From a bacterium (GTDB lineage Bacteria; Patescibacteriota; Minisyncoccia; UBA6257; 02-FULL-45-10c): a stretch of DNA of 64,000 nt. Location of the stretch: assembly GCA_030700025.1 (NCBI GenBank), contig JAUYKI010000006.1, positions 13,428 to 77,427 of the forward strand, read 5' to 3'. This document shows positions 10,391 through 58,768 of the stretch, piece after piece. Position numbers and translations under genes: made by a program. The notes under the pieces were generated by a model, which was not told the DNA's origin, did no database searches, and saw nothing but the letters and a program-made list of their open reading frames with translations. Positions within the stretch are counted from its first letter, which is position 1, and every line of letters begins with the position of its first letter.

Positions 10391-11475
10391 TGGCAAAAAA
10401 TTATTATCAAATTCTTGGGGTAGAAAAAAGCGCTTCGGAAGAGGACATAAAAAAAGCTTTTCGCAAGCTGGCGCATCAGCATCATCCGGATAAAGCCGGA
10501 GGCAATGAACAGAAGTTCAAAGAAATCAACGAAGCTTATCAGGTGCTTTCCAATAAAGAAAAGCGGTCTCAATATGACCGGTTCGGAAGGGTGGCAGACG
10601 GCGCTCAAGGCAACGGTCCTTTTGGCGGCCCGTTCAGCGGTTTTGGCGAAGGCTTTGATTTTAATTTTGACCCGTCCAATTTGGAGGATCTTTCCAATGT
10701 CAGCGATATTTTTGAGTCGTTTTTTGAAGGGCTGGGAATGAAAAAGAGGAAAACTTACCATCGGGGCGCGGACATTGAGGCCGTAAAAGAAATTTCGCTG
10801 GAAGAAGCTTTCCGCGGAATTGATTTGCGGTTGAAGGTGGAAACCGAATTGTCTTGCAAGCATTGCGCCGGTGCCGGTTATTTTTCTAAAGAAGGTTTTA
10901 CCAAATGCGGAGCTTGCGGGGGGCGGGGCGAGGTGCGGGAAACGCGCCAGACTTTTTTCGGGCAGTTTGCCCAAGTCCGGGCATGTTCCAAGTGCCGCGG
11001 ACAGGGAGAAATTCCGAATAAAATCTGTAATTATTGCAGTGGCAGTGGCCGGATAAAAGGAGAGCGGGAAGTGGAAATTGAAATCGCGCCCGGAATCGCT
11101 GACGGGCAATTAATCAAGGTAACCGGAGCCGGACAGGCGGGCGAACGGGGAGCCGGAGCCGGCGATCTTTACGCGCGGATTAAAATTAAACCGCATCATG
11201 ATTTTCAAAGAGTTAATAATGATTTGATTGTTAAAAAGAGCTTAAGCTTAACCGATATATTGCTTGGGAAAAAAGTGGAAATCCCAACAGTAGCCGGCGG
11301 GAAAATTAACGCGGAAATTCCCGAAGATTTTAATTTACGGGAACGATTGCGGATTCCGGGCGAAGGGATGCCAAGATTTGGTTCTTTTGGGCGCGGAGAC
11401 CTTTATGTGGAATTCCAGATTCGGACTCCGAAAAAGATTGATCCGAAAATCAAAAAGTTTTTGGAAGAGCTATAA
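10390..11475 (+). CDS. dnaJ: molecular chaperone DnaJ
   Basis: 361 aa; J domain with HPD (HQHHPDK), Gly-rich linker, four CxxCxGxG zinc-finger repeats; start overlaps dnaK stop. Confidence 0.92.
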
Positions 11476-11600
11476 TCCCCCACATAACAAAGACAATAGA
11501 TTTATGCCAAAACCAAGCTTTACTATAAAAACCAGTCGTTTATTAAAAAAACAAAGATTTAACGGACAATCTGCTCCGCGGTCTTTGTTATGTGGGGGAT
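11475..11600. repeat. Family-2 element copy 2 (ATCCCCCACATAACAAAGAC / GTCTTTGTTATGTGGGGGAT), between dnaJ stop and SGNH hydrolase start
   Basis: perfect 20-bp inverted repeat with compensatory A-to-C / T-to-G change relative to copy 1; ATG 11599 inside right arm. Confidence 0.8.
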
Positions 11601-12225: not shown

Positions 12226-12530
12226 ACTCGGAAACCTTTATTCTCCATTTTTGCTCAGCCGTACCACCTCTCCTCAACCCGCTCCGTTCGCTCCTGCGGC
12301 TCACTTCGCTTTGTCCTCGCGGCTCGGCCATCGAGGCTTCCGCCTTTAACGATGGGCCAAGCCCTCGCTCGCTGCGGGGGTATCGGAGAAGTAGTAACGG
12401 CTTCGCTTAAAAAATAAAGGTTTCCTCGCTAAATAAAAAAATAATAAGAAAAATCCTCCCTCACTTTTGTGAAAACGCAATAAAAAAATCCGCCATAGGC
12501 GGATTAACTTTCACAAGAGTGAGGGATCGG
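12226..12530 (+). repeat. Family-3 mosaic GC-rich repeat region
   Basis: modules CTCGGAAACCTTTATTCTCC, GCTCAGCCG.ACCAC.TCTCCTCAAC, ~130-bp unit shared with 49838-49976 (inverted), palindrome CCCTCACTTTTGT...ACAAGAGTGAGGG with inserted hairpin ATCCGCCATAGGCGGAT. Confidence 0.8.
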
Positions 12531-12542
12531 GGGATAAATAAT

Positions 12543-13307
12543 TTATTCAGCAGTGAGCTTGGACCAGACTCCGAAAGTCTGGGTTTTACAGCCCATGACT
12601 TCCTGGTAAATCGCCATGCCCAGATAAACTTTAGTTTCCATGGTGGCTTGCTGGAACGCTACTAAACCGGCGTCCATTTCAGCAAGGCGTCCAGATTTCT
12701 GAATGCCAATTAGTCCCATGCCAACTATGGCTTTATCTCCGGCTTTTTGGCAGAGAATTAATCCCACAGCTAACGCCGCTCGTTTGCCTGCTTTTTGATA
12801 GGCGACCAGTCCCAACAAATGGTCAATGTCATTTTCGGCAGATTCATACAGGGAAATTCCAGTAACAACTAAGATGTCTTTTTTAGCCCGCTGATATCCG
12901 GTTATTCCGAGGACAGTGACGGCATCGCGTCCGGCGCTCTGATATACGGTTATTCCGAGGGCGGTGGCGGCATCGCGTCCGGCGCTCTGATAGCCGGTTA
13001 TTCCGAAGCCGGTGGCGGCATCGCGTCCGGCGCTCTGATATCCGCCCAATCCGACGACGCTCATCGCATCCTCGTTAGCTTTTTGGTGAAGCGAGCAAAC
13101 AGAATAAATGCTTTTTTCGCTGACCGCGTTTCCGAAAACCGTGAAAATATTGCCGTTGATATTGATGGGCAGGCAAAGAATTGCCACCCAGGTCGCCATC
13201 TTAAGCGCCCGCAGGTGAGAGTATTTTACTCGTTTTTGGTTATTCCACATACACCATAAACAGAAGTAGACTATCGCGGTCAGGAAATACAGAACCAGAT
13301 TTTCCAT
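12543..13307 (-). CDS. membrane-anchored repeat protein (ten ~16-aa GxxGYQSAGRDAxT-like repeats), hypothetical
   Basis: 254 aa; N-terminal TM; three near-identical 48-bp tandem DNA units at 12900-13043 inside the CDS. Confidence 0.6.
   Translation of the reverse strand: MENLVLYFLTAIVYFCLWCMWNNQKRVKYSHLRALKMATWVAILCLPININGNIFTVFGNAVSEKSIYSVCSLHQKANEDAMSVVGLGGYQSAGRDAATGFGITGYQSAGRDAATALGITVYQSAGRDAVTVLGITGYQRAKKDILVVTGISLYESAENDIDHLLGLVAYQKAGKRAALAVGLILCQKAGDKAIVGMGLIGIQKSGRLAEMDAGLVAFQQATMETKVYLGMAIYQEVMGCKTQTFGVWSKLTAE
12900..13043. repeat. three near-identical 48-bp tandem repeats inside the CDS 12543-13307
   Basis: GGTTATTCCGAGG.C.GTG.CGGCATCGCGTCCGGCGCTCTGATA..C x3. Confidence 0.85.
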
Positions 13308-14165: not shown

Positions 14166-14270
14166 TTTTTTATTGTCTGAGGCTTTCTTCTCTCGCTACC
14201 GTTCAAACTCCCAGTCCCTCACTTTTGTACAAGAGTGAGGGAAGTTTTCACTGGGTTTCGGATTTCGCTC
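14166..14270 (+). repeat. Family-3 repeat unit, left part (interrupted by Family-1 copy B; right part 14403-14470)
   Basis: contiguous in the 58-kb homolog, split here by the 132-bp Family-1 element. Confidence 0.75.
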
Positions 14271-14402
14271 GCCCAGCCCTATTTATTTTGAGGAACATCC
14301 CGCAGGCGTATTTTGCTTGGACCACAAAATACGCCGAGGGCGAAGAAAATCCGGCCGCTGGAGCCGGATTATTCTGTTTCCGAGAAGTAGATAGGGCTGG
14401 GC
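14271..14402 (+). repeat. Family-1 element, copy B (full length with GCCCAGCCCTAT terminal inverted repeats; core 14292-14381)
   Basis: conserved 5-prime 57 nt; second stem AATCCGGC/GCCGGATT around loop CGCTGGA; nested inside a Family-3 repeat. Confidence 0.85.
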
Positions 14403-14510
14403 ACCATGCCCACTCAATCCTCGGCCCGCGCTACGGAGAAGAAAACCTCAGACACCTTTCTATATTTATGAAGTTGTAATATTTTTTTCATCCATCTATA
14501 CTTTATTTTA

Positions 14511-19194: not shown

Positions 19195-20895
19195 ATGAGA
19201 GACATAACTTTATTCGGACAAACAAACTTTCGGAACCAGAAAATCCGGTTCGGCATTAAGGTAGATGACCGCCGGAGGCACATGTATATCATTGGAAAAA
19301 CCGGCATGGGTAAGACCACTATGCTGGAGAATATGATTATTGCCGACATTAATGCCGGCCGGGGCGTTGGCATTGTGGATCCGCACGGCGAGCTGGCGGA
19401 AAAGATTTTAGACTTTGTTCCGGAAAGCCGGATTAAGGATGTAATTTATTTTAATCCCCAGGATTTGGAATTTCCGATTGCTTTTAATCCATTGGAGCAA
19501 GTAGGCACGGAATTCCGCCACTTGGTGGCTTCGGGAATTATGGGCGTATTTAAGAAGATATGGCCGGATGTCTGGTCGGCTCGTATGGAATATATTTTGA
19601 ACAATTCTTTACTGGCGCTTTTGGAATGCCCAGGCTCAACTTTGCTTGGCATTATGCGGATTTTGTCCGACAAAGAATACCGTAAAAAAGTAGTGGATAA
19701 TTTGAAAGACCCGGTGGTCAAGGGCTTTTGGGTAAATGAATTTGCCAAATATACCCAGCGGCTGGAAAGCGAGGCGACGGCAGCTATTCAAAACAAAGTT
19801 GGACAGTTCGTCACCAATCCGCTGATCCGTAATGTTTTAGGACAGGGGCATTCCACGGTGGATATGCGGAAGATTATGGACGAACGGAAAATTTTAATCG
19901 TTAACTTGTCTAAAGGAAGAATCGGAGAAGATAATTCCGCGCTTTTGGGAGCAATGATTATTACCAAGCTTCAGCTGGCAGCTATGTCACGGGTGGATAT
20001 TCCGGAAAAGGAGCGCCAAGACTTTTTCTTATACGTGGACGAGTTCCAAAACTTTGCCACCGATTCCTTTGCTAATATTTTATCGGAAGCCAGAAAATAC
20101 CGGCTTTGCCTGATTTTAGCGCACCAATATATCGGCCAATTGAGCCACGGAGATAATGATAAGGTGCGGGACGCGATTTTTGGTAACGTCGGAACTATGA
20201 TTTCTTTCCGGGTGGGCGCCGAAGATGGAGAATTTTTGGAAAAAGAATTCCAGCCGGACTTTATGATGAATGATTTTGTTAATTTATCCAAATATACTTT
20301 TTATACCAAGCTGATGATTGATGGAATCGCCTCCCGGCCTTTTTCCGCCCAGAATATTGAGCCATTTGTTCCTCCGGCGGTAGCGTTCCGGAATTCAATT
20401 ATTGACGAAAGCCGGAAACGGTACGGTACTGCCCGTTCCATTGTAGAAGTTAAAATTGCAGGCGAGTGGTTAGTGGATGGCGGCCGAACAGCGGATGAAA
20501 AGCCGCCCCGCCGCGAAGAAGGATTTGCGCGTCGGGATGATCGGCCCATGCATCGCGAGGAAAGGCCCGTTTATAGAGAAGACAGGCCTATGCGTAGCGA
20601 CGACAGGCCAATGCGCCGGGAAGAACGGCCATTATCAGAGGCCTTGCGCCCGGTTCCTCAGCGTTCAGATTTTCCGCCGCGCCGGAGCAATGATTGGCGG
20701 CCAGGCGGCCAGCCTACCAGCGATGGCATTCGCAGGATTCCGGTAAGGCGGGAAGAGTTCCGTCCGGCGCCGCAACCGATGGCCCCTCGGAACGATCAGC
20801 CAAGGCCAAAAGTAGACATTGCGGATTTGAAGAAGTCTTTAGACGAAATTTTATTAGATAAAATAACCAAAGAAGAAACGGGCGGAGAAGAATAG
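19195..20895 (+). CDS. AAA-like ATPase of the TraD/VirD4/HerA (DUF87-like) group with RED-rich repetitive C-terminal tail
   Basis: RRHMYIIGKTGMGKTT Walker A preceded by RH; IVDPHGEL; Walker B LYVDEFQNF; C-terminal DRPMxREERP-like repeats. Confidence 0.6.
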   Translation: MRDITLFGQTNFRNQKIRFGIKVDDRRRHMYIIGKTGMGKTTMLENMIIADINAGRGVGIVDPHGELAEKILDFVPESRIKDVIYFNPQDLEFPIAFNPLEQVGTEFRHLVASGIMGVFKKIWPDVWSARMEYILNNSLLALLECPGSTLLGIMRILSDKEYRKKVVDNLKDPVVKGFWVNEFAKYTQRLESEATAAIQNKVGQFVTNPLIRNVLGQGHSTVDMRKIMDERKILIVNLSKGRIGEDNSALLGAMIITKLQLAAMSRVDIPEKERQDFFLYVDEFQNFATDSFANILSEARKYRLCLILAHQYIGQLSHGDNDKVRDAIFGNVGTMISFRVGAEDGEFLEKEFQPDFMMNDFVNLSKYTFYTKLMIDGIASRPFSAQNIEPFVPPAVAFRNSIIDESRKRYGTARSIVEVKIAGEWLVDGGRTADEKPPRREEGFARRDDRPMHREERPVYREDRPMRSDDRPMRREERPLSEALRPVPQRSDFPPRRSNDWRPGGQPTSDGIRRIPVRREEFRPAPQPMAPRNDQPRPKVDIADLKKSLDEILLDKITKEETGGEE

Positions 20896-23224: not shown

Positions 23225-23272
23225 GCTCATAATCCTTATTCTCATAAATAAGCTCCGCCATGGTTGCCGTAG

Positions 23273-23362
23273 GGAACATCCCGCAGGCGTATTTTGCTTG
23301 GACCACAAAATACGCCGAGGGCGAAGAAAGTTTTATCGCTGGAATAAAACTATTCTGTTTCC
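23273..23362 (+). repeat. Family-1 element, copy C (core)
   Basis: ~98% identical to copy A reverse complement; flanked by direct CCGTAGG heptamers. Confidence 0.85.
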
Positions 23363-23401
23363 CGTAGGCAATCTGGCGGAGCGAGTATGTGGAAGGAGAA
23401 T

Positions 23402-23445: not shown

Positions 23446-25191
23446 TTAACCGCGCGAAGGGGCGCGTTCTTTATCGTAGCGTTTCTGATACCATTTCTTG
23501 ATTTGCCGGGAAAGGAAGTTGCTTTGGAGCCAGGCGGTAAGGGGGGCAACGGTTGGGCGGTAAATCGGCTCTTGCAGGTTAATCCGGTTGTCGGCTTCCA
23601 AAACCGCGTTAGCGGCTCGGGTGCCGGACTTAACTGCTGCTTCCATGCCTAACTCAAACTCGTCGGTCCAGTCGCCAGCCAGGAATAGGTTAGCCAGGGA
23701 TGTTGCGGGAGAATGGGGAAGGAATCGGGAATTGAGCCGGGGGAATGGCCGGTGATAAAGCGCTGCCGGGTAGATGCGGGCTAGCAGATGCTTATGCACT
23801 TTCGCGGAATTAACTTCCGGGAAAAGCGCTTTTACATCCGTTAATAAGCGCGCTTTCAAAACTTTTTCCGGATAGAACTCCAGCACTTCGCCGTCGTCGG
23901 AAAGCGTGTCAAACACGCTAGTTTTTTCGTAACGGGGCATAATATTAGAAATATCCATACAGCCGTTCATTGACCAGAAGTCTCTGTCCAACCCGGTTAA
24001 ATTATATTCGTGAGTCACTTTCCGGTCTAAGAAAATTCTGGACACGGTAAGAGCCGCGCCTTTGAATTGGCCAAGCGCCCGAAACTCCCGGAATTCCCGG
24101 AGTGGGTGATTGTCGGGAGAGCGGAAAAGATTAGCCAGCTGGTGCGGCTGCATCGCGGAAATAATAAATTCGGCCTCAATCAGTTCGGGAGTTGGTTTAG
24201 CCATGTTCTTCCGATATTTTTTTTCGGGCGTTGCGCAACCGCAAGCCGGACAAAGCGGATATTGTTTGGCCGGCGGATAAAGCAATCCGCAATTATCGCA
24301 AACCATGTTTGCGTAATGGCCGCAGTCTTCCACGGTTACGCCAATAGCGTGTTTTTGTTCTGTAAGAATGTCGCGTACGTGGCAATTGAATCTGAAATTA
24401 ACTCCGCGCGCTTTTAGCGTTTCCACCAACCGGTCAATTAAGGCCGGATTACAATCGTCATTCATCATCCGGCACCCGAGAATATTTTTATCCCGCAGAT
24501 AAGCCAGATAAAAAAGGTGCATGAATTTCGGGCCTACTTGATCGGCATCAGCCAGGTTCGTAATAGAATAGGTAATGCGCCGGAAAGTTTTAACGGCTTC
24601 ATGCGTAAGGCCGAGATGCTTCATAATGCCGTAAAAATTCCAGTCGTCGGAAATCGGCGGTACGGATTTGTCGCCAAAGAGAAGGGCGAGAGCGTGGAAT
24701 CGGACCGCGCTTAACCGGTCCCGGAGAGTTGGAAATCCTTCAAAGTCGGTCAAGATTTGCAAGTTAGAAAGCGGAGCCGGGAGAAACGATAATGCTTTTC
24801 CAATGCGGGTGCTCGGCTTGCCGGTAAGGTGCATTCGCCGTCCGCCTTCGTCGGCTAAGAAAAATCCATCCAGCCGGCCGGTAAAAGACGGATTCGGCTG
24901 ATTGGTCCAGGATTTCGGCAAAGCGGTAATCGGGGATTGGATGCTTGGCAGAGTTAACTCGCGCCAGCAAAAATAATTCAGATTTTCATAAAAAGGAAAA
25001 TTCATTTGCATTTGGCCCTTTCGGATTGATCCATGTTCCGGATCGCGGTGATCGGTCCATGAAGACGTACAACCGCCCGCCATTGGAGCCCGTTCAATAA
25101 CTGTGACTTGGTAACCGCGGTCCACCAGAACGCTGGCGGAGCGGAGGCCGGCTAAACCGGCGCCGAGAATTACGACACTTTTGTTTTCCAT
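23446..25191 (-). CDS. FAD-dependent oxidoreductase (amine oxidase / phytoene desaturase-like) with internal Cys4 zinc-ribbon insertion
   Basis: Rossmann VVILGAGLAGL at N-terminus; C-terminal LFLAGDWT...G.E.AV.SG; insertion CGHYANMVCDNC...CPACGC. Confidence 0.7.
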   Translation of the reverse strand: MENKSVVILGAGLAGLRSASVLVDRGYQVTVIERAPMAGGCTSSWTDHRDPEHGSIRKGQMQMNFPFYENLNYFCWRELTLPSIQSPITALPKSWTNQPNPSFTGRLDGFFLADEGGRRMHLTGKPSTRIGKALSFLPAPLSNLQILTDFEGFPTLRDRLSAVRFHALALLFGDKSVPPISDDWNFYGIMKHLGLTHEAVKTFRRITYSITNLADADQVGPKFMHLFYLAYLRDKNILGCRMMNDDCNPALIDRLVETLKARGVNFRFNCHVRDILTEQKHAIGVTVEDCGHYANMVCDNCGLLYPPAKQYPLCPACGCATPEKKYRKNMAKPTPELIEAEFIISAMQPHQLANLFRSPDNHPLREFREFRALGQFKGAALTVSRIFLDRKVTHEYNLTGLDRDFWSMNGCMDISNIMPRYEKTSVFDTLSDDGEVLEFYPEKVLKARLLTDVKALFPEVNSAKVHKHLLARIYPAALYHRPFPRLNSRFLPHSPATSLANLFLAGDWTDEFELGMEAAVKSGTRAANAVLEADNRINLQEPIYRPTVAPLTAWLQSNFLSRQIKKWYQKRYDKERAPSRG

Positions 25192-25299: not shown

Positions 25300-25494
25300 G
25301 CCCAGCCCTATCTATTTCTTGGAAACAGAATAGTTTTATTCCAGCCCCGACGTAAAGTCGGGGCTCCGACATCTTTATTTTAAAAATTTAATAACGAAGC
25401 GTCGGAGCGATAAAACTTTCTTCGCCCTCGGCGTATTTTGTGGTCCAAGCAAAATACGCCTGCGGGATGTTCCTCAAAACAGATAGGGCTGGGC
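25300..25494 (-). repeat. Family-1 element, copy D (full length, TIRs GCCCAGCCCTATCT; core 25321-25473 with 63-nt insertion in the CGCT/GGA loop)
   Basis: insertion itself forms two hairpins (GCTCCGAC...GTCGGAGC and CCCCGAC-TTTAC-GTCGGGG). Confidence 0.85.
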
Positions 25495-25579: not shown

Positions 25580-27376
25580 ATGACCGAAAAAGGCCCCGAC
25601 TTCCTCAAAAAGAAATACGACCTCCACAAAGCTCCGGAAACGGAAACCGCCGCCAAGCGGACGGAAAAAAGAACTAACGAAAAAGTCCCTCAAGCTCCGG
25701 AAGCCCGCATCCAAAACTACCTCAACCGCTTCAAGGAAATCATAGACCGGAAAGACCCGGAAAAACGGGAAAGAGGCCTGGAAGCCATAAAAAAAGTCCT
25801 CTACGATAAATTCGTCATCCAAGAAAACGAAATCCCGGAATCATACTTTGAACTCCAAAAACGGATTGCGAGAGAACAAGGCCATGGAGAAATTGAAATC
25901 TCCAAAGAACAAAAAGACCAGCTAACCGAAGTAGTCATTACCGACCAAAGAACCACCTTGGATAACTGGGTAGACTACCTATCCTCTCCAGACGCCACCT
26001 ATCCGGACTGGCTCAAATACTGGACTATCCGGAGCATTCTGGGAATAGGCGAATACGACAAAGAAAAGAAAGAATTCACTAAACGCTCCAAAAGCACTAC
26101 CAAGCCCTTCCTGGATATCAATCGGGAAGCTTTAGCCTATGTGCTAGACGCCGTTTCCAAAAAATACGGCCAACAGCACACCAATCTCCTTAACCTCAAT
26201 GAGCAAGAAAGAAAAGACTTTGAATCCCTCCTCCAAGGAGAAAACTTCGCCAAACTCTATGCCTGGGCAATAGAAAAAACTACCGTCGCTCCTCAAGAAG
26301 CCCTGGCTAATACCCAAGGCAAATGGATTAAATACAACCAAGGACAAGACCATATGCCCTTAGTCCAATCCCTTCAAGGACACGGCACCGGCTGGTGCAC
26401 GGCCGGAGAATCCACCGCCAAAACCCAGCTTCAAGGAGGGGATTTCTATGTCTTTTACTCCATGGACAAAAAAGGCAAACCCACCCTTCCCAGAGTGGCT
26501 ATCCGCATGAACGGCAATCAAATCGGAGAAGTCCGGGGAATTGCTCCGGATCAAAACTTGGACCCCTATATCGGCGATATAGTCCAAAAGAAAATGACCG
26601 AATTTCCTGACGGCAAATCTTATGAGAAAAAAGCTGGAGACATGAAAATGCTGACTGCCATAGAACAGAAAACCCTTCGGCTCCGCTCAGGGCAAGCCAA
26701 TCAAGAATTGACCAGGGAAGAATTACATTTCCTCTATGAAATGAACCAAAAAATTCAAGGATTCGGCTATCAAAGAGACCCGCGGATTGAGGAACTAAGA
26801 AAACAAAGAAATTCGGAAGAAGATATGTTGATTATTTTTGAATGTACGAAAGACCAGATTGCCCACACTCCGAAAGAAATCAATTCAAATACTAAAGCCT
26901 ATGTCGGTAAAATTAAACTGGGTATTTTTCAAAAACTACCAGAAAATATCGAGCATGTTTATACTGAATTCCCTGACAAGAAAGTTTTTATGAAAGAGAT
27001 TGTCTCGGATGAAGAAATTATTTCTGCTAAAACCGCCATTCAAAAACTCGAAGTTCAAGGGCACAAAATTGGCGACTATGCCAGAGATATGTTATCCAAA
27101 GTAAATTGGAAGGAAAGTCTAAAAGACTCCTACAACATTATCTCTATTTCTGTTGGGGAACTTTTCGGTGACGCAAACTACCATAATTATGCCGATATCA
27201 AAGCCAAAGCTCGAGAAAGTGGCCTAGACATTATTCCAGCTTCTCTCGCTCCATCAATTCGTTTGAATTATGATAAAAATGGCGAGTGGACAGTCCTCGC
27301 TATGGAAGCGATGCGCGACCGTGACGGTAGTCTTAGGCGTTTCGGCTGGGACGGGGTGGTTCTGAGTCGTGGTTGA
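25580..27376 (+). CDS. DGR target protein (variable C-terminal CLec/FGE-like tail; VR frameshifted in this assembly, probable true end 27444)
   Basis: 3-prime 136 bp (27306-27441) homologous to TR at 27744-27879; differences almost all at TR adenines; AAC-codon register continues past the annotated stop in another frame, ending ...RFFFVRK. Confidence 0.75.
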   Translation: MTEKGPDFLKKKYDLHKAPETETAAKRTEKRTNEKVPQAPEARIQNYLNRFKEIIDRKDPEKRERGLEAIKKVLYDKFVIQENEIPESYFELQKRIAREQGHGEIEISKEQKDQLTEVVITDQRTTLDNWVDYLSSPDATYPDWLKYWTIRSILGIGEYDKEKKEFTKRSKSTTKPFLDINREALAYVLDAVSKKYGQQHTNLLNLNEQERKDFESLLQGENFAKLYAWAIEKTTVAPQEALANTQGKWIKYNQGQDHMPLVQSLQGHGTGWCTAGESTAKTQLQGGDFYVFYSMDKKGKPTLPRVAIRMNGNQIGEVRGIAPDQNLDPYIGDIVQKKMTEFPDGKSYEKKAGDMKMLTAIEQKTLRLRSGQANQELTREELHFLYEMNQKIQGFGYQRDPRIEELRKQRNSEEDMLIIFECTKDQIAHTPKEINSNTKAYVGKIKLGIFQKLPENIEHVYTEFPDKKVFMKEIVSDEEIISAKTAIQKLEVQGHKIGDYARDMLSKVNWKESLKDSYNIISISVGELFGDANYHNYADIKAKARESGLDIIPASLAPSIRLNYDKNGEWTVLAMEAMRDRDGSLRRFGWDGVVLSRG

Positions 27377-27441
27377 ATGACGATGATGGTCGCGATGACG
27401 ACAAGTGGGACGGTAACGGCCGGTTCTTCTTTGTTCGCAAG
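27306..27441 (+). repeat. DGR variable repeat (VR) at 3-prime end of target gene
   Basis: ~136 bp homologous to TR; about 20 TR-A to VR-G differences, 2 non-A differences, one 1-nt deletion in a G-run (27349-27357). Confidence 0.8.
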
Positions 27442-27494
27442 TAGCTTAATTCTTAAATCTTAAGCCCTTTAAACATCTCTTTTTCCTTATCCCT

Positions 27495-27523
27495 TATAAC
27501 TTTTTAAAAAATATTGTTATAAT
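27495..27523 (+). promoter_or_regulatory. candidate promoter with extended -10 (TGtTATAAT) reading toward the DGR template repeat
   Basis: TGTTATAAT at 27515-27523 in AT-rich spacer between VR and TR. Confidence 0.35.
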
Positions 27524-27743
27524 ATATCCGAAAGTAGGTGAATACGCAGACGACTAAGGTTTTCTGCCACCCAAATCAGTATCCATATATCGAGAATATT
27601 TCAGACCAAGGTTTGAAATAGAGTGGTGTATGCAGATTCTTCATAAAAAATGAAGTTACTTGGTTTAGAATCTAGGGCATTATGATGCCGAATACGATAC
27701 AGCTCTGAGAGTATTCTAGGGGCGGTGGTGTAGACGGATTCTA

Positions 27744-27879
27744 AACAATACGCGACCGTGACGGTAATCTTAGGCTTTTCAACTGCAACAGGAATGGTTC
27801 TGAGTCGTGGTTGAATAACAATAATGGTCGCGATGACAACAAGTGGAACGATAACAACCGGTTCTTCTTTGTTCGCAAA
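27744..27879 (+). repeat. DGR template repeat (TR)
   Basis: A-rich with many AAC/AAT codons in the target frame (NNNNGRDDNKWNDNN); followed by hairpin CTCTCCCGAT-TTTGT-ATCGGGAGAG. Confidence 0.8.
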
Positions 27880-27884
27880 TTATT

Positions 27885-28250
27885 TCATTTCTCTCCCGAT
27901 TTTGTATCGGGAGAGTTTTGTTTTGTAAGCTGTCCAAACCAACCGCCAAGCATTTTACCCACCTCATTTATTTTTTCTGAAAGCGCAATATATTTTTTAT
28001 TATCAAGCGACTTGTTTTCCCAAAGAATAAGGAGAAAGATGTTGAGCGTATTGATTTTTTTAATTGCAAGCCTTACATAAGGCGCCTTTTCTTCTCGAGA
28101 AAGAAAAACGGCAACAGAAATAGCCTCTATTGTATCGGTAAATAGATTATCTATCTTTTGACCGATGGTATATCTATGGTTTTTAGGTAGGATCCGGTAA
28201 TATTCATACCAAAGCTGGTAACCGCCTTTGATTTTCTGCAGAATTGGCAA
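27885..28250 (-). CDS. avd: DGR accessory variability determinant (Avd-like four-helix-bundle protein)
   Basis: 121 aa; resembles bAvd/four-helix-bundle family (YQLWYEYYRILPKNHRYTIGQKI ... INEVGKMLGGWFGQL); TTG start; opposite strand to TR and RT. Confidence 0.65.
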   Translation of the reverse strand: MPILQKIKGGYQLWYEYYRILPKNHRYTIGQKIDNLFTDTIEAISVAVFLSREEKAPYVRLAIKKINTLNIFLLILWENKSLDNKKYIALSEKINEVGKMLGGWFGQLTKQNSPDTKSGEK

Positions 28251-28293
28251 TAAATTTGCGAGGGGGGGGGGCTTTTAATGGATCGTTATTGTT

Positions 28294-29286
28294 ATGAAAA
28301 TTCAATTGGCTCATAAATTTGAAGACATTATAAGCGTGGAAAATCTATTGGAGGCATGGAGAGAATTTATCCGAGGAAAACGGAGCAAAAAAGACGCCCA
28401 AGAATTTTCTATTAACTTGATAGATAATATTTTCTCGCTTCATTCCGACCTTGCTGATTTTACCTATAAGCACGGCGGTTATCAAGCCTTTAATATAAGC
28501 GACCCTAAGCCGAGGAATATCCATAAGGCCAGCGTCCGAGACCGCCTGCTTCACCATGCTATTTATAGAATTCTTTACCCATTTTTTGATAAAACTTTTA
28601 TTCCTGATTCTTATTCCTGCCGGATAAATAAGGGTACGCATAAAGCCATAAATCGGCTCCGCTCTTTTGCTTACGAAGTCAGCCGGAATAACACTAAAAC
28701 CTGCTGGATATTAAAGATGGATATAAGAAAATTTTTTGCCAATATTGACCACCTTATTTTACAGGATATTTTGAAGCAATACATACCGGATAAAAATATC
28801 TTATGGCTTTTAGATAGAGTGACTGAGAGTTTTTCCTCGCCATACGGCAATAATAAGGGTTTGCCCCTGGGCAATCTAACCTCCCAACTATTGGTGAATA
28901 TCTATATGAATGAATTAGACCAGTTTGTGAAGCATAAATTAGGAATTAGGCATTATATAAGATACGCGGATGATTTTGTGATTTTGCATGAAAATCGGCA
29001 GTATCTTATAAATCTTTTGCCAAAGATGTCAGTATTTTTAGAAACGCGATTAAAGCTTTTGCTCCATCCGTATAAAGTATTTATTAAAACACTTGCCTCT
29101 GGAGTTGATTTTCTTGGCTGGGTGCATTTCCCGCGCCATCGGATATTGCGGACCGTAACTAAACGAAGAATGTTTAAAAAAATAAATCAAAATCCTACAA
29201 ATGAAACCGCGGCTTCATATTGGGGATTACTTAGTCATGGAAATACGCACAAGCTGATTCATAAAATACGAAAGCTACTCTACTAA
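28294..29286 (+). CDS. diversity-generating retroelement reverse transcriptase
   Basis: 330 aa; RT motifs incl. YADD (IRYADDFVIL); DGR-type motif 4 LPLGNLTSQ (SQ instead of group-II QG); DRLLHHAI motif 2. Confidence 0.85.
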   Translation: MKIQLAHKFEDIISVENLLEAWREFIRGKRSKKDAQEFSINLIDNIFSLHSDLADFTYKHGGYQAFNISDPKPRNIHKASVRDRLLHHAIYRILYPFFDKTFIPDSYSCRINKGTHKAINRLRSFAYEVSRNNTKTCWILKMDIRKFFANIDHLILQDILKQYIPDKNILWLLDRVTESFSSPYGNNKGLPLGNLTSQLLVNIYMNELDQFVKHKLGIRHYIRYADDFVILHENRQYLINLLPKMSVFLETRLKLLLHPYKVFIKTLASGVDFLGWVHFPRHRILRTVTKRRMFKKINQNPTNETAASYWGLLSHGNTHKLIHKIRKLLY

Positions 29287-34646: not shown

Positions 34647-34691
34647 GATTGTAAATCACTTTTGCGTTTTAAAATCTAAAATCGAGGCAAT

Positions 34692-34781
34692 ATCTCTTTA
34701 AAGGAACATCCCGCAGGCGTATTTTGCTTGGACCACAAAATACGCCGAGGGCGAAGAAAGTTTTGCCGCTGGAGCAAAACT
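34692..34781 (+). repeat. Family-1 element, copy E (core; flanks ATCTCTTT / AAAGAGAT)
   Basis: second stem AGTTTTGC/GCAAAACT, a compensatory AT to GC change relative to copies A/C; loop CGCTGGA. Confidence 0.85.
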
Positions 34782-35230
34782 ATTCTGTTTCCGAAAAGAG
34801 ATGTAGCCGAGATCCTTGACAAAGTTCGGGTATCTGTTATACTACCCCATAGTACATTAGCAGTGAGCAATCTTCGGGGTTCCGCCTGCCAGCGGAGCCT
34901 ATACAAATCCTGACGGGGTTTAGCAAGTAGTAAAGCTACAAAGCGCGTGGCGCTTTACTCGTCAGGCAGGCGCGACACCTTACGTTTTTTGGTGTCGTGG
35001 GGCGCTTCGGTGAAAATCGAAGTCCTGGTCAGCGCAGCCAGTCGCCGAATGAGATCTCTCCCGATGCAGGTCGGAAAGTATGATCCTCGGCGCGGCGCAG
35101 AGCGGCAAAGTCCCCGAACGCCTTCCTATCGGAAGGTATGGAAGCCCACCAGCCCCGACTTAATTGTCGGGGCCATTTTTTTATTCGCCTCGCTTTAGTA
35201 AAGGCGGATTTTTTATTACAATAGGCAGAT

Positions 35231-40274: not shown

Positions 40275-40431
40275 ATAGCATACCCAGTACTACAATAAAG
40301 ATTGCTTGCGGTACGTGGAGCTGACATCAAAAAATAAATTTAATGTTTTTATCGATAAAATACCCGATATTAACTTAATCATATTCCGCAAGAATAGCTC
40401 TTATCTTTGTTGTAGTACTGGGCATATTGAG
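40275..40431. repeat. long imperfect inverted repeat (ATAGCATACCCAGTACTACAATAAAGATTGCTTGCGG / CCGCAAGAATAGCTCTTATCTTTGTTGTAGTACTGGGCATATTGAG) between convergent ndk and permease genes
   Basis: 13-bp perfect core CCCAGTACTACAA / TTGTAGTACTGGG with extended imperfect pairing; encloses ~75 bp. Confidence 0.65.
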
Positions 40432-44391: not shown

Positions 44392-44527
44392 ATCCCACAC
44401 ATAACTGCGATTTAATCCCCAAAGCCGTGAAGTTTGGCAATAAGGCTTAGTTTTTAGCTATTGGCTTAATAAACAACGAACAACCCCTGGGATTAACTAG
44501 CTTTGCAATCGCAGTTATGAGTGGGAT
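44392..44527. repeat. Family-2 element copy 3 (ATCCCACACATAACTGCGAT / ATCGCAGTTATGAGTGGGAT), 36 nt upstream of rpmB
   Basis: outer 14 bp as in copy 1; inner 6 bp replaced on both arms (compensatory); one mismatch. Confidence 0.75.
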
Positions 44528-49837: not shown

Positions 49838-49976
49838 CGAAGCCGCTACTACTTCTCTGAAACCCCCGCAGCGAGCGAGGGCTTGGCCCATCGTTAAGGC
49901 AGAGCCTCGATGGCCGAGCCGCGAGGACAAAGCGAAGTGAGCCGCCGGAGCGAACAAAGCGGGTTGAGGAAAGTGG
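49838..49976 (-). repeat. Family-3 repeat unit (inverted copy of 12268-12410)
   Basis: ~90% identity over ~135 bp in reverse complement; directly upstream of alaS. Confidence 0.8.
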
Positions 49977-50000
49977 TTCGGCTAAGCTATAATTTAACAC

Positions 50001-51800: not shown

Positions 51801-54800
51801 ATGTCCTCTGAAGAACACCAACAAAATTTTAAAGAGGCCTTGCTTCATTATTTTGGCATCTTAGTTTTAGCTTTAATTTTTCTTTTCCCGGGAAAGCCCC
51901 AGGCTGCTCCAGGGCCGTTGCCACAACTGGTGGGCTATCTTGCGGTGGATTCCGGCGCTAATGTTTTTCATACCTATGATTCTATAGATATCGCGGGAAC
52001 TAAAGTTTTTCTGGCTATGAAAAACCGCAATGTTATTCGGGTGGTAGATGTTTCGTCTCCAACGAACCCTGCCATTATTGCTACATCTTCTCCTTTAGCG
52101 GCAGATTTTTTTATCGGATTGGTAAATAATATCGCGTACACTATTATGGGAAATTATTTCCAAACGGTGGATATTTCCAATATAAATAATATGCCCGTTT
52201 TGGATAATTGGGGTTCGTATGGTTTGGCGCCAACCTCATTGGCTACTCGAAATGGTTATACCTATGTTTTGTATTTAATGGAGAACAAGATGCGAATTTT
52301 CGACGTAACTAATTCCGCTAATATTCAAAATGTCGGAACTATCAGCACTAGTCCGCACCCGGCCTATATTCGCATTAAAGATTCCTACGCCTATGTTATA
52401 ACCACAGGAATGTTGTCAGCGCCAACTCTAGAAATATATGATTTAGCCGATCCATCAAGGCCAATACAGGTTGGAAAAATTAGTACCGTATATGCCGCGC
52501 ATGGCCTTCGAATTGCCGGAAATTTTGCCTATGTATTAGTAGGCCTAAATACATTGCAAGCTTATGATATATCCGATCCGACACAACCAAGGGCCGTAAG
52601 CGCCATTCAAATTGATAATCAGTCGCCTGCTTTAGATATCGCCGGAAATTGCGCTTATGTAGTAAGCCGGGGAGCCAATACCTTGCAAGTTTTTAATATT
52701 GCCGACCCCTTGCACTTGAAAAGGTCTGGATCAGTTAATCTCGGTCCTGGCGTTACTCCGGCCGATATTAGGGTGACTAATAATTATGCTTATGTCGCTA
52801 ATAACTCCTCGCAAACATTACCGAGCCGATCGAATTTAGAGATTTTTGACATCAGCAACGTTCAGGCACAAGGATGCCCGGGCATTGATGCTACTTCGGT
52901 TTCGTTATCATCGGCTCCAATAGTAACTACGACCACCGCGATTCCGAATTCTTGTCCGGCGCTGGTGAATTTAAACCCGACCGTACAGGGTCAGACAGGC
53001 GTACTAGGAATATCTTATAATTTAGAAACTATCAAAGTTTCTGGAAATTGGGCGTTTGTTATTGCCCAGGATCTAAATACTTTAAATTCTATTAATATTT
53101 CCGACGTAACCCAGGTAGCTCTTAGAACTAGGCAAGGCGGCGCCAGCTTCATCAGAACCGGATCGCTCCCCCTTGATCTTTTTGTATCGGGAAATTTTGC
53201 TTACGTAATTACCGGTTCTAATTTGCTTCAGGTCTTTGACGTTTCTGACCCTTTAAATATGAGTTTGGTGGGAACGATTGCTACGCATCAAAGCCCAAAT
53301 TCGGTATTTGTTTCCGGCCAATATGCTTATGTAGTGAATACCGGACCTCGAACTTTGCAAATTTTTAACGTGGCTAACCCCCAAAATATCTCAGAGGTTA
53401 GTTCTTTAAAAGTAGATGGTGCCGGCTACGGCGTCGCGGTAACTAATGGTTACGCTTATGTGATTAATGGGATCGGAAAAGATTTGAGAGCTTATGACGT
53501 CAGTAATCCCGCTAATCCAAGATTGGCCGGATTGATTGGAACTACCGGCGCGCCCAGCGGTTTATTTATTAAAAATAATTTCGCTTACGTAGTTACACAT
53601 TTAGGATTAGAAATTTTTGATATTTCTAATCCATCCCAAATTCAGAAACGCGGCCAGTCAGCAGTCACCGCGTTATCCCGGTCAATATTTGTTACCGAAA
53701 ACTATGCCTATGTGGGAAAAATAAGCGGGGCAGTTGCCGATCCGAATAGTGGATCCACGGTTCAGGCCAATTGGGTAATTTTTGATATTTCCGATCCGGA
53801 TAATCCAAGAATCGCGGCCGGTAATTTTAGCAATCGGATTTTTGACTATGGACTTTATATGCGATCCACTTTTGTAGTTGGCAATTACGCTTTTGTCACC
53901 GAGAACTCCATCACTCGCGGCCAAAACAGTTCTATACGGGTTTTTTGCATTTCTCCTACAGAAAGCGGTGTGGCTTGCGGTTGTCCGCCGCCGACTCCAG
54001 CTCCAGCGCCCACTGTTGCCACAGCGGTTGCTCCACCCGTGAGTCCGGTGGTTACGGCGCCGACAACTAGCTCGCTTAATTTGGCATTAGCGCCGGAGTT
54101 GGTTGGTTCGGCCCAGACCGGAGACGAACCAGTTTCAATTTTTATTTATGGCCATCATTGTTACGTTATCAACCGCATTACCGGCTCGGTTCAAATTTTT
54201 GATATTTTGGATCCGAATAGTCCGGTTTTAGTAGGAGAGTTTCAAACTGATCCCGGGCCGGAGAGAATAGAAGTCGCGGACGGTTTTGCTTATGTGGTTA
54301 GCGGAGCTTCGGACACGCTCCAAATTTATAATGTTTCTGATCCCAGCAATCCGCGATGGGTAAGTTCCATCAGAACCGGCAGATTTCCGAATTTCATCCG
54401 AAGATCCGGGCAATATATTTACGTCACTAATCGGGATTCTAATACGTTACAAGTTTTTGATGTTTCCAATTCCGCGAGCCCGAGATTGGTTAGCAGCGCC
54501 AATTTAGGGCCTTGCACTTGCCACACCTACATAATTAATAATTATATTTATATTACTAATGAAGGATCTAATGCTTTGCAAGTTTTTGACATTGCGGATC
54601 CGACCCGTCCTCGTTTAGCCGGTTCGGCAATTACCCGGCCAAATCCCCGCGGAATTTATGTTTTTGGAAGCTATGCTTATGTTTTGAGTTATCAAGGAAA
54701 TACTCTGGAAGTTTTTGATGTCTCTAGTCCTTCCCGGCCTCGGTCGTTGGGTTGGACCAATACCGCCGCGGGCGCGCATTCCATTTTTATCCGGGGGCCT

Positions 54801-57320: not shown

Positions 57321-57345
57321 TGTATCCTCGGGCATATTGTTTTTC

Positions 57346-57435
57346 GGAAACAGAATAAATTTTTTCCAGCGAAAAATTTTTCTTCGCCCTCAGCGCATTT
57401 TGTGGTCCAAGCAAAATGCGCCTGCGGGATGTTCC
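57346..57435 (-). repeat. Family-1 element, copy F (core; flanks ATATTGTTTTT / AAAAACAATAT)
   Basis: second stem AAATTTTT/AAAAATTT; first stem carries compensatory GCGCATTTTG...CAAAATGCGC. Confidence 0.85.
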
Positions 57436-57517
57436 TAAAAACAATATACCCTTAGCTAATTGACTCAATTTTAAGGAAATAAAAAAAACCGCCGGTTCAT
57501 CCAGCGGTAAATATATT

Positions 57518-57811
57518 TTATGCAATGCGTAAAACAAGCATTGAATTTGGGAAGATACTAGAAACACCCCTCAGATTCTCCGCTCTTCCATGAGTAGAAG
57601 AGGTAAGTACCTCAATGGTCCCGACGGAATGAGCTTTAGTAAAAATACGGGATATCCCCCGAAATCCTCCATGCCCGCTATTATCTCCCGGCAAAGGAAA
57701 ACAAATAAACTTCTCATAGACTTTAAGCTCTCCAAAAGTCATCGGCTCAAAACAAGCGGCCGATTCTTGAACAATTCTCTTCTTTAAATCTTTAGCGGCT
57801 TTAGATGTCAT
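57518..57811 (-). CDS. hypothetical protein
   Basis: 97 aa; promoter ATGACA-18-TAATAT and RBS GGAGGGAAG upstream; terminator-like hairpin downstream. Confidence 0.5.
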   Translation of the reverse strand: MTSKAAKDLKKRIVQESAACFEPMTFGELKVYEKFICFPLPGDNSGHGGFRGISRIFTKAHSVGTIEVLTSSTHGRAENLRGVSSIFPNSMLVLRIA

Positions 57812-57848
57812 TTATTTCTTCCCTCCATCAAAGAGCTTCAGTAACAGG

Positions 57849-57879
57849 ATATTAGCATATTAATAGCTTGTTTGTCATA
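57849..57879 (-). promoter_or_regulatory. promoter module ATGACA-18-TAATAT (copy 1 of duplicated 35-bp promoter)
   Basis: 35-bp near-identical direct repeat with 58462-58496; immediately upstream of 57518-57811 gene with RBS. Confidence 0.55.
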
Positions 57880-57896: not shown

Positions 57897-58120
57897 CCCC
57901 CTTCCTGGGTATTTAGCGAGGAAATCTTTATTCTCCGTAGCGCGGGCTGAGGGCTGAGCGGGCAGGGTGTCCCGCGAAGCGGGACGAGCGAAGCCCGAGA
58001 CCCAGTGAAAACTTCCCTCACTCTTGTACAAAAGTGAGGGACTGGGAGTTTGAATTGTAGCGGGAGAATAAAGGTTTCCGAGTAAGGTGTTGAGGAGCGG
58101 TGGCTCGGCTGAGCGCTGAG
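57897..58120 (-). repeat. Family-3 mosaic repeat region (inverted homolog of 14166-14270 + 14403-14470 and modules of 12226-12530)
   Basis: shares ~90-bp unit CGCTAC..TTCAAACTCCCAGTCCCTCACTTTTGTACAAGAGTGAGGGAAGTTTTCACTGGG..TTCGCTCG and others with the 14.2-kb and 12.3-kb loci. Confidence 0.75.
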
Positions 58121-58190: not shown

Positions 58191-58427
58191 TTACCTTCTG
58201 TTGGGTAAACTCTTGGCCAGGACGGGTTCTTTGCGGGGAGGGATAGGCTCGGGCGAAGAATTTAAAAAGTGTCTTTGTACTTCTGCTCCGGTCACCGGTC
58301 CTTTCACGCCAGCTACATTAAACTTAGCTTTGGCACCCGCGGGACAATCGCAGGGTAAATCATTATTTCCCGTCTCCCAAACTCCAGTGCCTCCGCACTT
58401 CTTACATTCAGAGTCTATCTCTAGCAT
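58191..58427 (-). CDS. small zinc-ribbon protein (CxxCxGxG ... CxC), hypothetical
   Basis: start moved to internal ATG after RBS GGAGGAG; upstream ATG at 58475 lies inside the -10 of its own promoter TTGACA-18-TAATAT; CKKCGGTG motif; terminator 58142-58168. Confidence 0.5.
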   Translation of the reverse strand: MLEIDSECKKCGGTGVWETGNNDLPCDCPAGAKAKFNVAGVKGPVTGAEVQRHFLNSSPEPIPPRKEPVLAKSLPNRR

Positions 58428-58464
58428 TTTTTCTCCTCCACGGTAAAGAACATCACCGTGACAG

Positions 58465-58495
58465 GATATTAGCATATCAATAGCTTGTTTGTCAA
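58465..58495 (-). promoter_or_regulatory. promoter module TTGACA-18-TAATAT (copy 2)
   Basis: same 35-bp module upstream of the zinc-ribbon gene 58191-58427. Confidence 0.55.
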
Positions 58496-58499
58496 GTTG

Positions 58500-58766
58500 A
58501 ACCTATCCCTATAATATTTTCCACCGCGATATTAGTCAATTTTATTCAGAACTAGGCTATGAGGGCGAAGCTGTGGTTTTACCACGCTGAGTCCGAGTAA
58601 CGACGTTATGGATAAAATTGGCTATATCCCGTAGGGTTGCGGTCTAAATTGAAAATTTCGTTGTTCTGCCTCGGAGCTATAGCTTAGGCTATAAACCTCC
58701 TCGGCACGCCTAGAAATTTTCAATTTATCTTGACAACGCGGTTAGGAAATATTATAGGGATAGGTT
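58500..58766. repeat. ~265-bp element bounded by 28/30-bp terminal inverted repeats (AACCTATCCCTATAATATTTTCCACCGCG / CGCGGTTAGGAAATATTATAGGGATAGGTT)
   Basis: arms seen directly; inner inverted repeat TAAATTGAAAATTTC / GAAATTTTCAATTTA; right arm overlaps promoter/RBS of 58769 gene. Confidence 0.7.
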
Positions 58767-58768
58767 CT

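Follow-up and report, generated by a model that had tools for sequence, protein, structure and literature searches.

Inherited expansion segments as a possible origin of nested hairpins in a dispersed, fold-constrained repeat of Patescibacteria

Within a 64-kb stretch of patescibacterial DNA (64,000 nucleotides, referred to throughout as the window), positions 25300–25494 hold copy D of an intergenic repeat, Family-1, in which a conserved hairpin loop is enlarged by a segment that itself folds into hairpins. Copy B of the same repeat lies inside another structured repeat, Family-3, and a palindrome near 12.4 kb likewise has a hairpin at its centre. A first-pass annotation of the sequence took these arrangements as signs of independent hairpin modules that repeatedly insert into existing loops by a structure-targeting mechanism. 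The question raised by the locus is whether a hairpin within a hairpin records an insertion event or a variant of one inherited element. The reading that we favour, at a probability of about one in two, is that D is a copy of a non-autonomous, fold-constrained, dispersed intergenic repeat of Patescibacteria and that its optional hairpins are inherited expansion segments. The features in question are listed below, with scores from a covariance model, R1, that was built from Family-1; each copy is assigned to the strand that reads GGAACAUCCCGCAGG....

25300–25494, minus strand: Family-1 copy D, with outer stem GCCCAGCCCTAT.../...ATAGGGCTGGGC, a three-way-junction core and a P3 hairpin with a 63-nt extension (114.5 bits)
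25345–25407, minus strand: the P3-loop extension of D, 63 nt with two hairpins, CGCU-[CUCCGAC..GUCGGAG][CCCCGAC..GUCGGGG]-CUGGA

Copy D is located between divergent genes, one encoding an FAD-dependent oxidoreductase (23446–25191, minus strand) and the other a 598-aa open reading frame (ORF; 25580–27376, plus strand). Its edges form a 25-nt imperfect inverted repeat starting with GCCCAGCCCTAT. This 12-mer is present at four places in the window, namely the inverted ends of D (25300/25483) and, as had been claimed, those of B (14271/14391); 0.4 occurrences are expected by chance, and none of 100 shuffles reached four. Alignment with the other five copies shows the 63 nt to be added between CGCT and GGA of the otherwise invariant P3 loop CGCUGGA, in agreement with the first-pass annotation, with a placement that is ambiguous by 2 nt because of AG/CU repeats at both borders. 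The annotated folding of the insert is also borne out: on the element strand the minimum-free-energy fold contains two 7-bp hairpins, CUCCGAC-(30 nt)-GUCGGAG and CCCCGAC-UUUAC-GUCGGGG, and the remainder of D folds like the other copies. Run SRR13727534, in an independent assembly by Logan (L033), yields D with the identical insert, together with the edge of copy A, so the insert is not an artefact of the metagenome-assembled genome; the Logan contig terminates inside repeats, as expected of short-read assembly. No second copy of the insert is present in the window. Similar hairpins of the form (C)CCCGAC-loop-GTCGGG(G) found elsewhere in the window are ordinary terminators of this genome, and the idea that the insert is a repeated module was rejected.

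Repeat finding and alignment defined five further copies of Family-1 in the window.

3895–4032, minus strand: copy A (128.5 bits)
14271–14402, plus strand: copy B (131.7 bits), with the termini of D and another P3 stem (AUCCGGC), at the hairpin tip of a Family-3 unit
23252–23382, plus strand: copy C, flanked by the stop codon of EF-P and a terminator
34681–34813, plus strand: copy E, from the alignment and the R1 model
57323–57451, minus strand: copy F, starting 3 nt past the stop codon of a convergent 1839-aa ORF

The element is ~130 nt long, and the six copies occupy ~1.4% of the 64 kb. A block of 57 nt is nearly invariant across them (GGAACATCCCGCAGGCGTATTTTGCTTGGACCACAAAATACGCCGAGGGCGAAGAAA); it is followed by a hairpin with a copy-specific, fully compensated stem and a loop that is always CGCTGGA, then by TATTCTGTTTCC, and finally by a long copy-specific outer stem. 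The junction is ordered as P1 (GGAA/UUCC), CAU, P2, CGA, P3 and GU. P2 has the form CCC-GCA-GGCG...CGCC-GA-GGG, with a GCUUGG motif in its distal part, which in most other genomes also has an extra tip hairpin; P3 is composed of AGAA and 7 bp, with a bulged A and the loop CGC[U/A/G]GGA. Some 35 nucleotides, in the junction and loops, never vary, and the stems show covariation. Within a genome the P2a stem is nearly uniform, and P3 and the distal part of the outer stem are entirely copy-specific. B and D have completely different P3 stems, and D has its P3 in common with A and C; the copies are mosaics. An imperfect closing helix, the outer stem has a 5' arm of ~25 nt (median) and two 2x2 internal loops, set at fixed distances from the core and mostly with GA facing GA, as well as a semi-conserved proximal sequence (UUUUGAGGAAC/GUUUCCGAAAA). 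The outer stem accordingly belongs to the element, and the possibility that the core was dropped into pre-existing hairpins, with an outer stem derived from the target, was rejected.

Searching the window with R1, both with and without speed filters, returned exactly these six copies at 86–132 bits. The next match fell below 15 bits, and under either setting no decayed Family-1 relic was found in the window. To establish the distribution of the element, one genome for each of 185,579 species was scanned with a strict 23-nt pattern, CATCCCGCAGG-N25-45-GAGGGCGAAGAA. Among the 32 loci returned, 25 have the complete element, corresponding to 27 copies in 14 genomes of Patescibacteria (Yanofsky-, Azam-, Brenner-, Lipton- and Wolfebacteria, three Colwellbacteria, two further Patescibacteria and four Saccharibacteria); the other seven are chance matches in coding regions of unrelated bacteria. 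Homologues of SecD and of the oxidoreductase assign the window itself to Parcubacteria/Paceibacteria-type organisms. No match was found in IMG/VR viral contigs, INPHARED phage genomes or PLSDB plasmids, and a phage or plasmid origin was rejected on this basis.

Covariation was assessed in an alignment of 29 copies. Its consensus comprises 44 base pairs, and compensatory double changes are seen at 33 of them. Standard pairing is seen in 93.0% of cells, versus 71.9% after column shuffling (none of 500 shuffles matched the observed value), and drops to 54% or less when partners are slid by one to three columns; the covariation score is 0.578, versus 0.09–0.17 in controls. G-U combinations outnumber A-C by 55 to 20 (binomial p = 6e-5, with cells taken as independent although the sequences are related). 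Nearly all of this excess comes from the outer stem, P2 and P3 being almost purely Watson-Crick. One copy scored 129 bits with R1 on the forward strand and 14 bits on the reverse, and three window copies folded alone are more stable by 2.5–10 kcal/mol on the GGAAC strand than on the complement; with 45-nt flanks, the GGAAC strand is the better one in four of the six window copies and in about two thirds of all copies. The wobble excess, folding energies and strand scores together indicate that one strand is the constrained one.

Known RNA families do not account for the fold. At gathering thresholds, Rfam 15 identified two tRNAs only in the window; permissive searches (E<10) with three different copies gave scattered miRNA and snoRNA noise and no recurring ribozyme, riboswitch or repeat-element family. 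Known families, including the hammerhead, twister, twister-sister, pistol, hatchet and HDV-like ribozymes, were rejected at both thresholds, and a hammerhead- or twister-like core did not fit on inspection by eye. Full-text literature searches gave nothing relevant on RNA motifs, repeats, MITEs (miniature inverted-repeat transposable elements) or ribozymes of the Candidate Phyla Radiation (CPR), or on the core sequence.

The enlarged P3 hairpin of D is not confined to this genome. A metagenome scan that required 10–40 extra nucleotides in the P3 loop returned one locus, L037, from an unrelated metagenome, where P3 reads CGCU-[CUCCGAC-CAAA-GUCGGAG]-[UCCGAC-AGCG-GUCGGA]-CUGGA. As in D, there are two hairpins at the equal loop position, with CCGAC/GUCGG stems and the CG...CUGGA nucleotides retained; it differs from D in its P2a sequence, in a P2 tip that is ~70 nt longer, and in a further small hairpin after GCAG. 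A one-hairpin version of the extension, CUCGAC...GUCGAAG, is seen in a Colwellbacteria copy (L005). The P3 insert of D, the optional P2 tip hairpin and the additional hairpin of L037 all sit at the tips of helices or the edges of junctions, with the invariant CG...CUGGA left unpaired, a placement that resembles, by analogy, that of expansion segments in structured RNAs.

The 12.4-kb palindrome appears to follow the same pattern.

12458–12525, minus strand: CCCTCAC...GTGAGGG clamp around a terminator hairpin (inner hairpin 12488–12504), with a long-form homologue at positions 49–118 of L034

Here CCCTCACTTTTGT...ACAAGAGTGAGGG surrounds ATCCGCCATAGGCGGAT, so that the hairpin module annotated at the centre is indeed present and is terminator-like. 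The conserved outer palindrome of the clamped terminator is CCCTCACTYTTG...CAARAGTGAGGG, and an unfilled short form of 26 nt is found within both Family-3 units (14216–14241 and 58015–58040). The clamp and terminator at 12.4 kb are homologous over their full length to those of L034, at a different locus and with compensated substitutions. Nested architectures thus recur in other genomes, and the nested forms would therefore be inherited variants that are themselves propagated units. The first-pass annotation had named identical nested arrangements in related genomes as evidence against mobility; the architecture does recur in this way, but the locus does not. Independent modules that insert repeatedly by structure targeting are not supported by these results, since the insert of D is single in the window and has a fixed architecture elsewhere, the L034 clamp is homologous, and the outer stem is owned by the element.

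Nesting of a different kind is seen at copy B, which had been described as splitting a Family-3 unit whose 58-kb homologue is contiguous.

14176–14452, minus strand: Family-3 unit containing B, bounded by TCTGAGGCTTTCTTCTC / GGAGAAGAAAACCTCAGA as inverted termini; L039 lacks the entire composite at its orthologous site
57920–58079, plus strand: Family-3 unit without Family-1, with a small hairpin, TCCCGCGAAGCGGGA (57970–57984), at the position of B in the other unit

When one unit is reverse-complemented, the two align almost base for base on both sides of B, which supports the description in that both arms are matched and B is found at the hairpin position. However, B takes the exact place of the 15-nt hairpin TCCCGCTTCGCGGGA, and this is a replacement rather than a clean insertion into a loop. 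The outer termini of Family-3 resemble those of Family-1 (GGAAAYCUUUAUU.../...GAGAAUAAAGGUUUCC), and the fold is multi-branched. Copy B is the single case of a position at a Family-3 hairpin tip. In another genome, H52-bin056, two Family-1 copies lie between conserved flanks UUCAACCCGCUCAC ... GCNCUUCCGUU within a larger palindrome. Given this case and that of B, nesting in other structured repeats is recurrent. Survival of insertions at the least harmful sites accounts for it as well as targeting does.

Comparison with relatives supports dispersal and turnover, and with them a part of the first-pass interpretation: Family-1 copies are gained or lost between related genomes. In L034, whose oxidoreductase is 84% identical, the gene again neighbours EF-P, but the spacer of 47 nt holds a terminator only, without copy C, and the 245 nt upstream of the oxidoreductase hold a CCCTCAC clamp-terminator in place of copy D. 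In L039 (SecD 91% identical), a 53-nt spacer with a plain terminator corresponds to the 365 nt that hold Family-3 and B in the window. EF-P directly precedes PutA in L039, so the whole 23.2–29.3-kb block is missing, and copy C is absent there too. R1 found no Family-1 copy in the 11 kb available from these relatives. The comparison of filled and empty sites suggested earlier thus yielded empty orthologous sites for B, C and D at 84–91% protein identity, but no strain-level empty sites came from exact-protein look-ups, which returned the same sample only.

Copies B and D have a unit in common, GCCCAGCCC...GGGCTGGGC, with four structure-preserving stem differences. The ends are sharp, the sequences flanking the two copies are unrelated, and a target duplication is absent. 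Because the ends are common and the flanks unrelated, the whole unit, including the stem, must have been copied. Across 31 copies no conserved flanking motif or tetranucleotide was found on either side, and direct repeats flank none of the copies.

Family-1 copies are bound neither to particular genes nor to a gene orientation. Copies between co-directional genes are in sense orientation in 8 cases and antisense in 10 (among 32 copies), and the window copies are distributed three per strand under a uniformly positive GC skew. No sigma-70-like promoter or intrinsic terminator was tied to Family-1 beyond the antisense control, and an independent small RNA gene was rejected accordingly; a cis-regulatory leader or riboswitch was rejected because orientation is random and several copies are 3' of genes. 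All-against-all ORF clustering at 25 loci revealed no protein family enriched beside the copies, the neighbours being housekeeping genes, TIM and PGK among them. Gene boundaries tend to lie close to the 3' end of Family-1: in ~10 copies a convergent ORF ends 1–21 nt past the 20-nt-extended boundary (custom ORF calls). The 5' side usually has a longer spacer of 30–600 nt.

Pfam scans of ~50 ORFs identified DnaB, CysRS, CorA, HrcA-GrpE-DnaK-DnaJ, SecDF, sigma factors, EF-P, PutA, MnmA, ComEC, DnaG, AlaRS and ribosomal proteins. The scanned ORFs of the window contain neither a transposase, HUH or integrase domain nor a RAYT, and the earlier statement that the window has no transposase holds for all of them. 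The sole mobile-type enzyme is the reverse transcriptase of a complete diversity-generating retroelement (DGR) that begins beside copy D.

25580–29286: complete DGR, comprising target gene, variable repeat, template repeat, bAvd-like gene and reverse transcriptase
25580–27376, plus strand: DGR target gene, 598 aa, without Pfam hit; its start is 86 nt from copy D
27306–27443: variable repeat of the target gene
27743–27880: template repeat, differing from the variable repeat almost only at template adenines
27885–28250, minus strand: bAvd-like accessory protein gene
28294–29286, plus strand: reverse transcriptase

A role for Family-1 as the template repeat, variable repeat or spacer RNA of this system was rejected, as the two repeats have no sequence in common with Family-1 and the other five copies are not near any reverse transcriptase; no link between the DGR and Family-1 was seen. 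A TraG/TrwB-like type IV coupling protein is encoded at 19195–20895 among housekeeping genes, in synteny with L039 and L031; it probably belongs to a conserved CPR type IV secretion or competence machinery and not to a conjugative element.

A second family of structured repeats in the window has the same order of motifs as Family-1.

12230–12426, minus strand: Family X copy, with motif order CCCGCAG..GCUUGG..CCGAG..GCGAAG..CGCAGGA
49838–49985, plus strand: second Family X copy, ~90% identical to the first

The general form of Family X is CCCGCAG...GCUUGG...CCGAG...GCGAAG...CGC[A/C/U]GGA, but its end is GGAGCGGGUUGA; GC content is ~0.6. It is found elsewhere at L003:5656–5806 (minus strand), L014:~1210–1385 and L032:6161–6310 (plus strand), and coexists with Family-1 in several CPR genomes. 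Weak R1 matches of 27–29 bits in Azambacteria and Wolfebacteria have the same motif order. Family X is a distant paralogue of Family-1.

We propose that a factor acting in trans, with its gene located elsewhere, copies whole units, stem and core together, to further intergenic sites; it would recognise the folded core on one strand, as RNA or as single-stranded DNA. Nested hairpins would not be mobile modules inserted independently but would grow locally and then be inherited. Replication template switching makes perfect small hairpins in one step and is a plausible source of the small GC-rich hairpins. Copy B may be found at the tip of a Family-3 unit simply because this position tolerates insertion.

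Several points weigh against this reading. Neither a mobilising enzyme among the window ORFs nor a target-site duplication or conserved flanking motif was seen. The absence of decayed copies from the 64 kb fits purifying selection, and hence host function, as well as it fits rapid turnover. The strict pattern used across species favours intact cores. Gain and loss are indistinguishable at the empty orthologous sites. Simple copying followed by drift does not account for a uniform P2a beside fully divergent P3 and distal stems, and an RNA that evolves by point mutation would not usually have P2 and P3 helices so nearly restricted to Watson-Crick pairs.

The main alternative, possible if doubtful, is that Family-1 is a host-functional family of non-coding RNAs in which each copy forms a protein-binding or catalytic three-way junction, the tip hairpins are variable regions and spread is incidental. 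Such RNAs might be freed when the ~25-bp stem is cut within a read-through transcript, RNase III being one candidate enzyme. The ~35 invariant nucleotides between freely covarying stems, maintained across distant CPR lineages, are what this explanation would predict, as are the lack of decayed copies in the window, the wobble-pair asymmetry between strands, expansions that leave conserved loop nucleotides unpaired, and the coexistence with Family-1, in several genomes, of Family X, a distant paralogue whose motifs follow the same order. However, with random orientation and no promoter or terminator of its own found, about half of the copies would be transcribed as the wrong strand; positions are not conserved even at 84–91% protein identity, the distribution is patchy (14 genomes among 185,579 species representatives), and Rfam 15 gave no match.

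Mobilisation of hairpin modules and of Family-1 as single-stranded DNA, by an HUH enzyme of IS200/IS605 or REP/RAYT type that targets hairpin loops, seems unlikely. The nested arrangements are real, one strand is favoured, the almost purely Watson-Crick P2 and P3 are as expected of DNA hairpins, and both the lack of target duplication, as for IS200/IS605, and the presence/absence differences between relatives are in keeping with such an enzyme. Yet the scanned window ORFs contain no HUH, transposase or integrase domain, the flanks have no conserved tetranucleotide, and three copies per strand under uniformly positive GC skew give no leading-strand bias. The insert of D is single in the window with a fixed architecture in other genomes, and the outer stems belong to the element and not to target hairpins. 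To our knowledge, a three-way junction with 35 invariant nucleotides is also far more complex than known HUH substrates. Chance similarity or an assembly artefact can be set aside: short-read contigs do break within repeats, and mis-joins are possible in principle, but D, insert included, and the edge of A are recovered in the Logan assembly too, the scores of 86–132 bits and the motif counts are far above shuffles, and the element is found in 14 other genomes.

CPR bacteria, or Patescibacteria, have tiny, streamlined genomes with very few described non-coding RNAs. Tentatively, Family-1 and Family X could make up an undescribed, Patescibacteria-specific superfamily in which stems diversify around ~35 fixed nucleotides. 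It might be a new catalytic or protein-recruiting RNA, with dozens of copies per ~1-Mb genome, or else a mobile element whose folded three-way junction is handled by a class of enzyme not yet linked to transposition. Conservation of sequence and structure from Saccharibacteria to Parcubacteria-type lineages, combined with turnover between relatives, implies that the host function is strong or else that an efficient and undescribed mechanism of propagation is at work. A hairpin within a hairpin in such genomes can be an inherited expansion segment and not an insertion event, and the R1 covariance model is applicable to all CPR genomes.

Other repeats were noted in the window. A third palindromic intergenic family of ~125–145 nt has three copies (7071–7217, 11475–11600 and 44392–44527), with termini ATCCCACACATAAC.../...GTTATGTGTGGGAT, and further long inverted repeats are located at 40280–40425, 58499–58767 and 5149–5298. 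The region 34817–35185 has a strong promoter (TTGACA-N17-TATACT), then ~330 nt of GC-rich sequence with a CCCCGAC...GTCGGGG + T7 terminator at its end, and has no Rfam match; it could be a candidate non-coding RNA or the 83-aa ORF 34947–35198. A 37-nt repeat, GTRACAGGATATTAGCATATYAATAGCTTGTTTGTCA, 95% identical between 57841–57877 and 58458–58494, reads on the minus strand as a TTGACA promoter upstream of two ORFs of ~95 aa (57518–57811 and 58191–58475) that have no Pfam hit. Coding tandem repeats comprise 48-nt units (12838–13070) in ORF 12543–13307 on the minus strand, and ~129-nt units (52500–55900) in the 1839-aa ORF (51801–57320) that converges on copy F.

Among known systems, we compared Family-1 with structured RNAs and with dispersed repeats. 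Invariant junctions, covarying stems and optional tip hairpins are also features of RNase P RNA, large ornate RNAs and small ribozymes; unlike these, Family-1 is multi-copy, is randomly oriented, has no promoter of its own that we could find, and has no match in Rfam 15 even at E<10. The attC sites of integrons have conserved R''/R' core sites at the hairpin base and a variable centre, and share one orientation in cassette arrays; this is the opposite of Family-1, whose copies are moreover dispersed in both orientations, and this identity was rejected. So was a palindrome-associated transposable element (PATE) derived from IS200/IS605: there is a single closing stem in place of two subterminal hairpins, and 31 copies have no conserved flanking motif on either side, where such elements insert 3' of a fixed tetra- or pentanucleotide, although the lack of target duplication is consistent with such an origin.

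Bacterial MITEs such as Correia/NEMIS and RUP are, like Family-1, small, non-autonomous and intergenic, with inverted ends and long RNA hairpins, and B and D behave like a duplicated MITE. MITEs, however, have conserved terminal inverted repeats and a target-site duplication. In Family-1 the termini are common to B and D only, the other distal stems are unrelated, and no flanking direct repeats were seen, so a classical MITE was rejected. The repetitive extragenic palindromic (REP) sequences and REPINs resemble Family-1 in being hairpin-forming, non-autonomous, intergenic, present in many copies and persistent with the genome. Several structured intergenic repeat families adjoin and nest in this and other CPR genomes, in a manner that may be likened to the REP mosaics of enterobacteria, the bacterial interspersed mosaic elements (BIMEs). 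REP sequences are nonetheless palindromes of 20–40 nt with a conserved GTAG/CTAC foot and an adjoining RAYT gene; at ~130 nt, with a much more complex core (a three-way junction), variable foot bases and no RAYT among the window ORFs, Family-1 was not identified as REP or REPIN.

A functional analogy holds with the enterobacterial repetitive intergenic consensus, or intergenic repeat unit (ERIC/IRU), of Enterobacteriaceae and Vibrio. This is an imperfect palindrome of ~130 nt, intergenic and in either orientation, which is conserved across distant genera, occupies different sites in different species, has longer variants with extra sequence at fixed internal positions, and may act at the RNA level; it has no known transposase. 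Family-1 corresponds in length, imperfect palindromy, intergenic position, dual orientation, variable site occupancy and internal-insertion variants. In ERIC, however, the whole sequence is conserved in a simple hairpin and the hosts are of another phylum, whereas Family-1 combines an invariant junction and loops with covarying stems in a three-way junction, and shows no sign of a sequence relation to ERIC, the Rfam scans having returned no repeat-element family. Among ERIC-, REPIN- and MITE-like structured repeats, Family-1 is unusual in its build, the centre being fixed and the stems free to vary, and in the CPR it is found in several candidate phyla.

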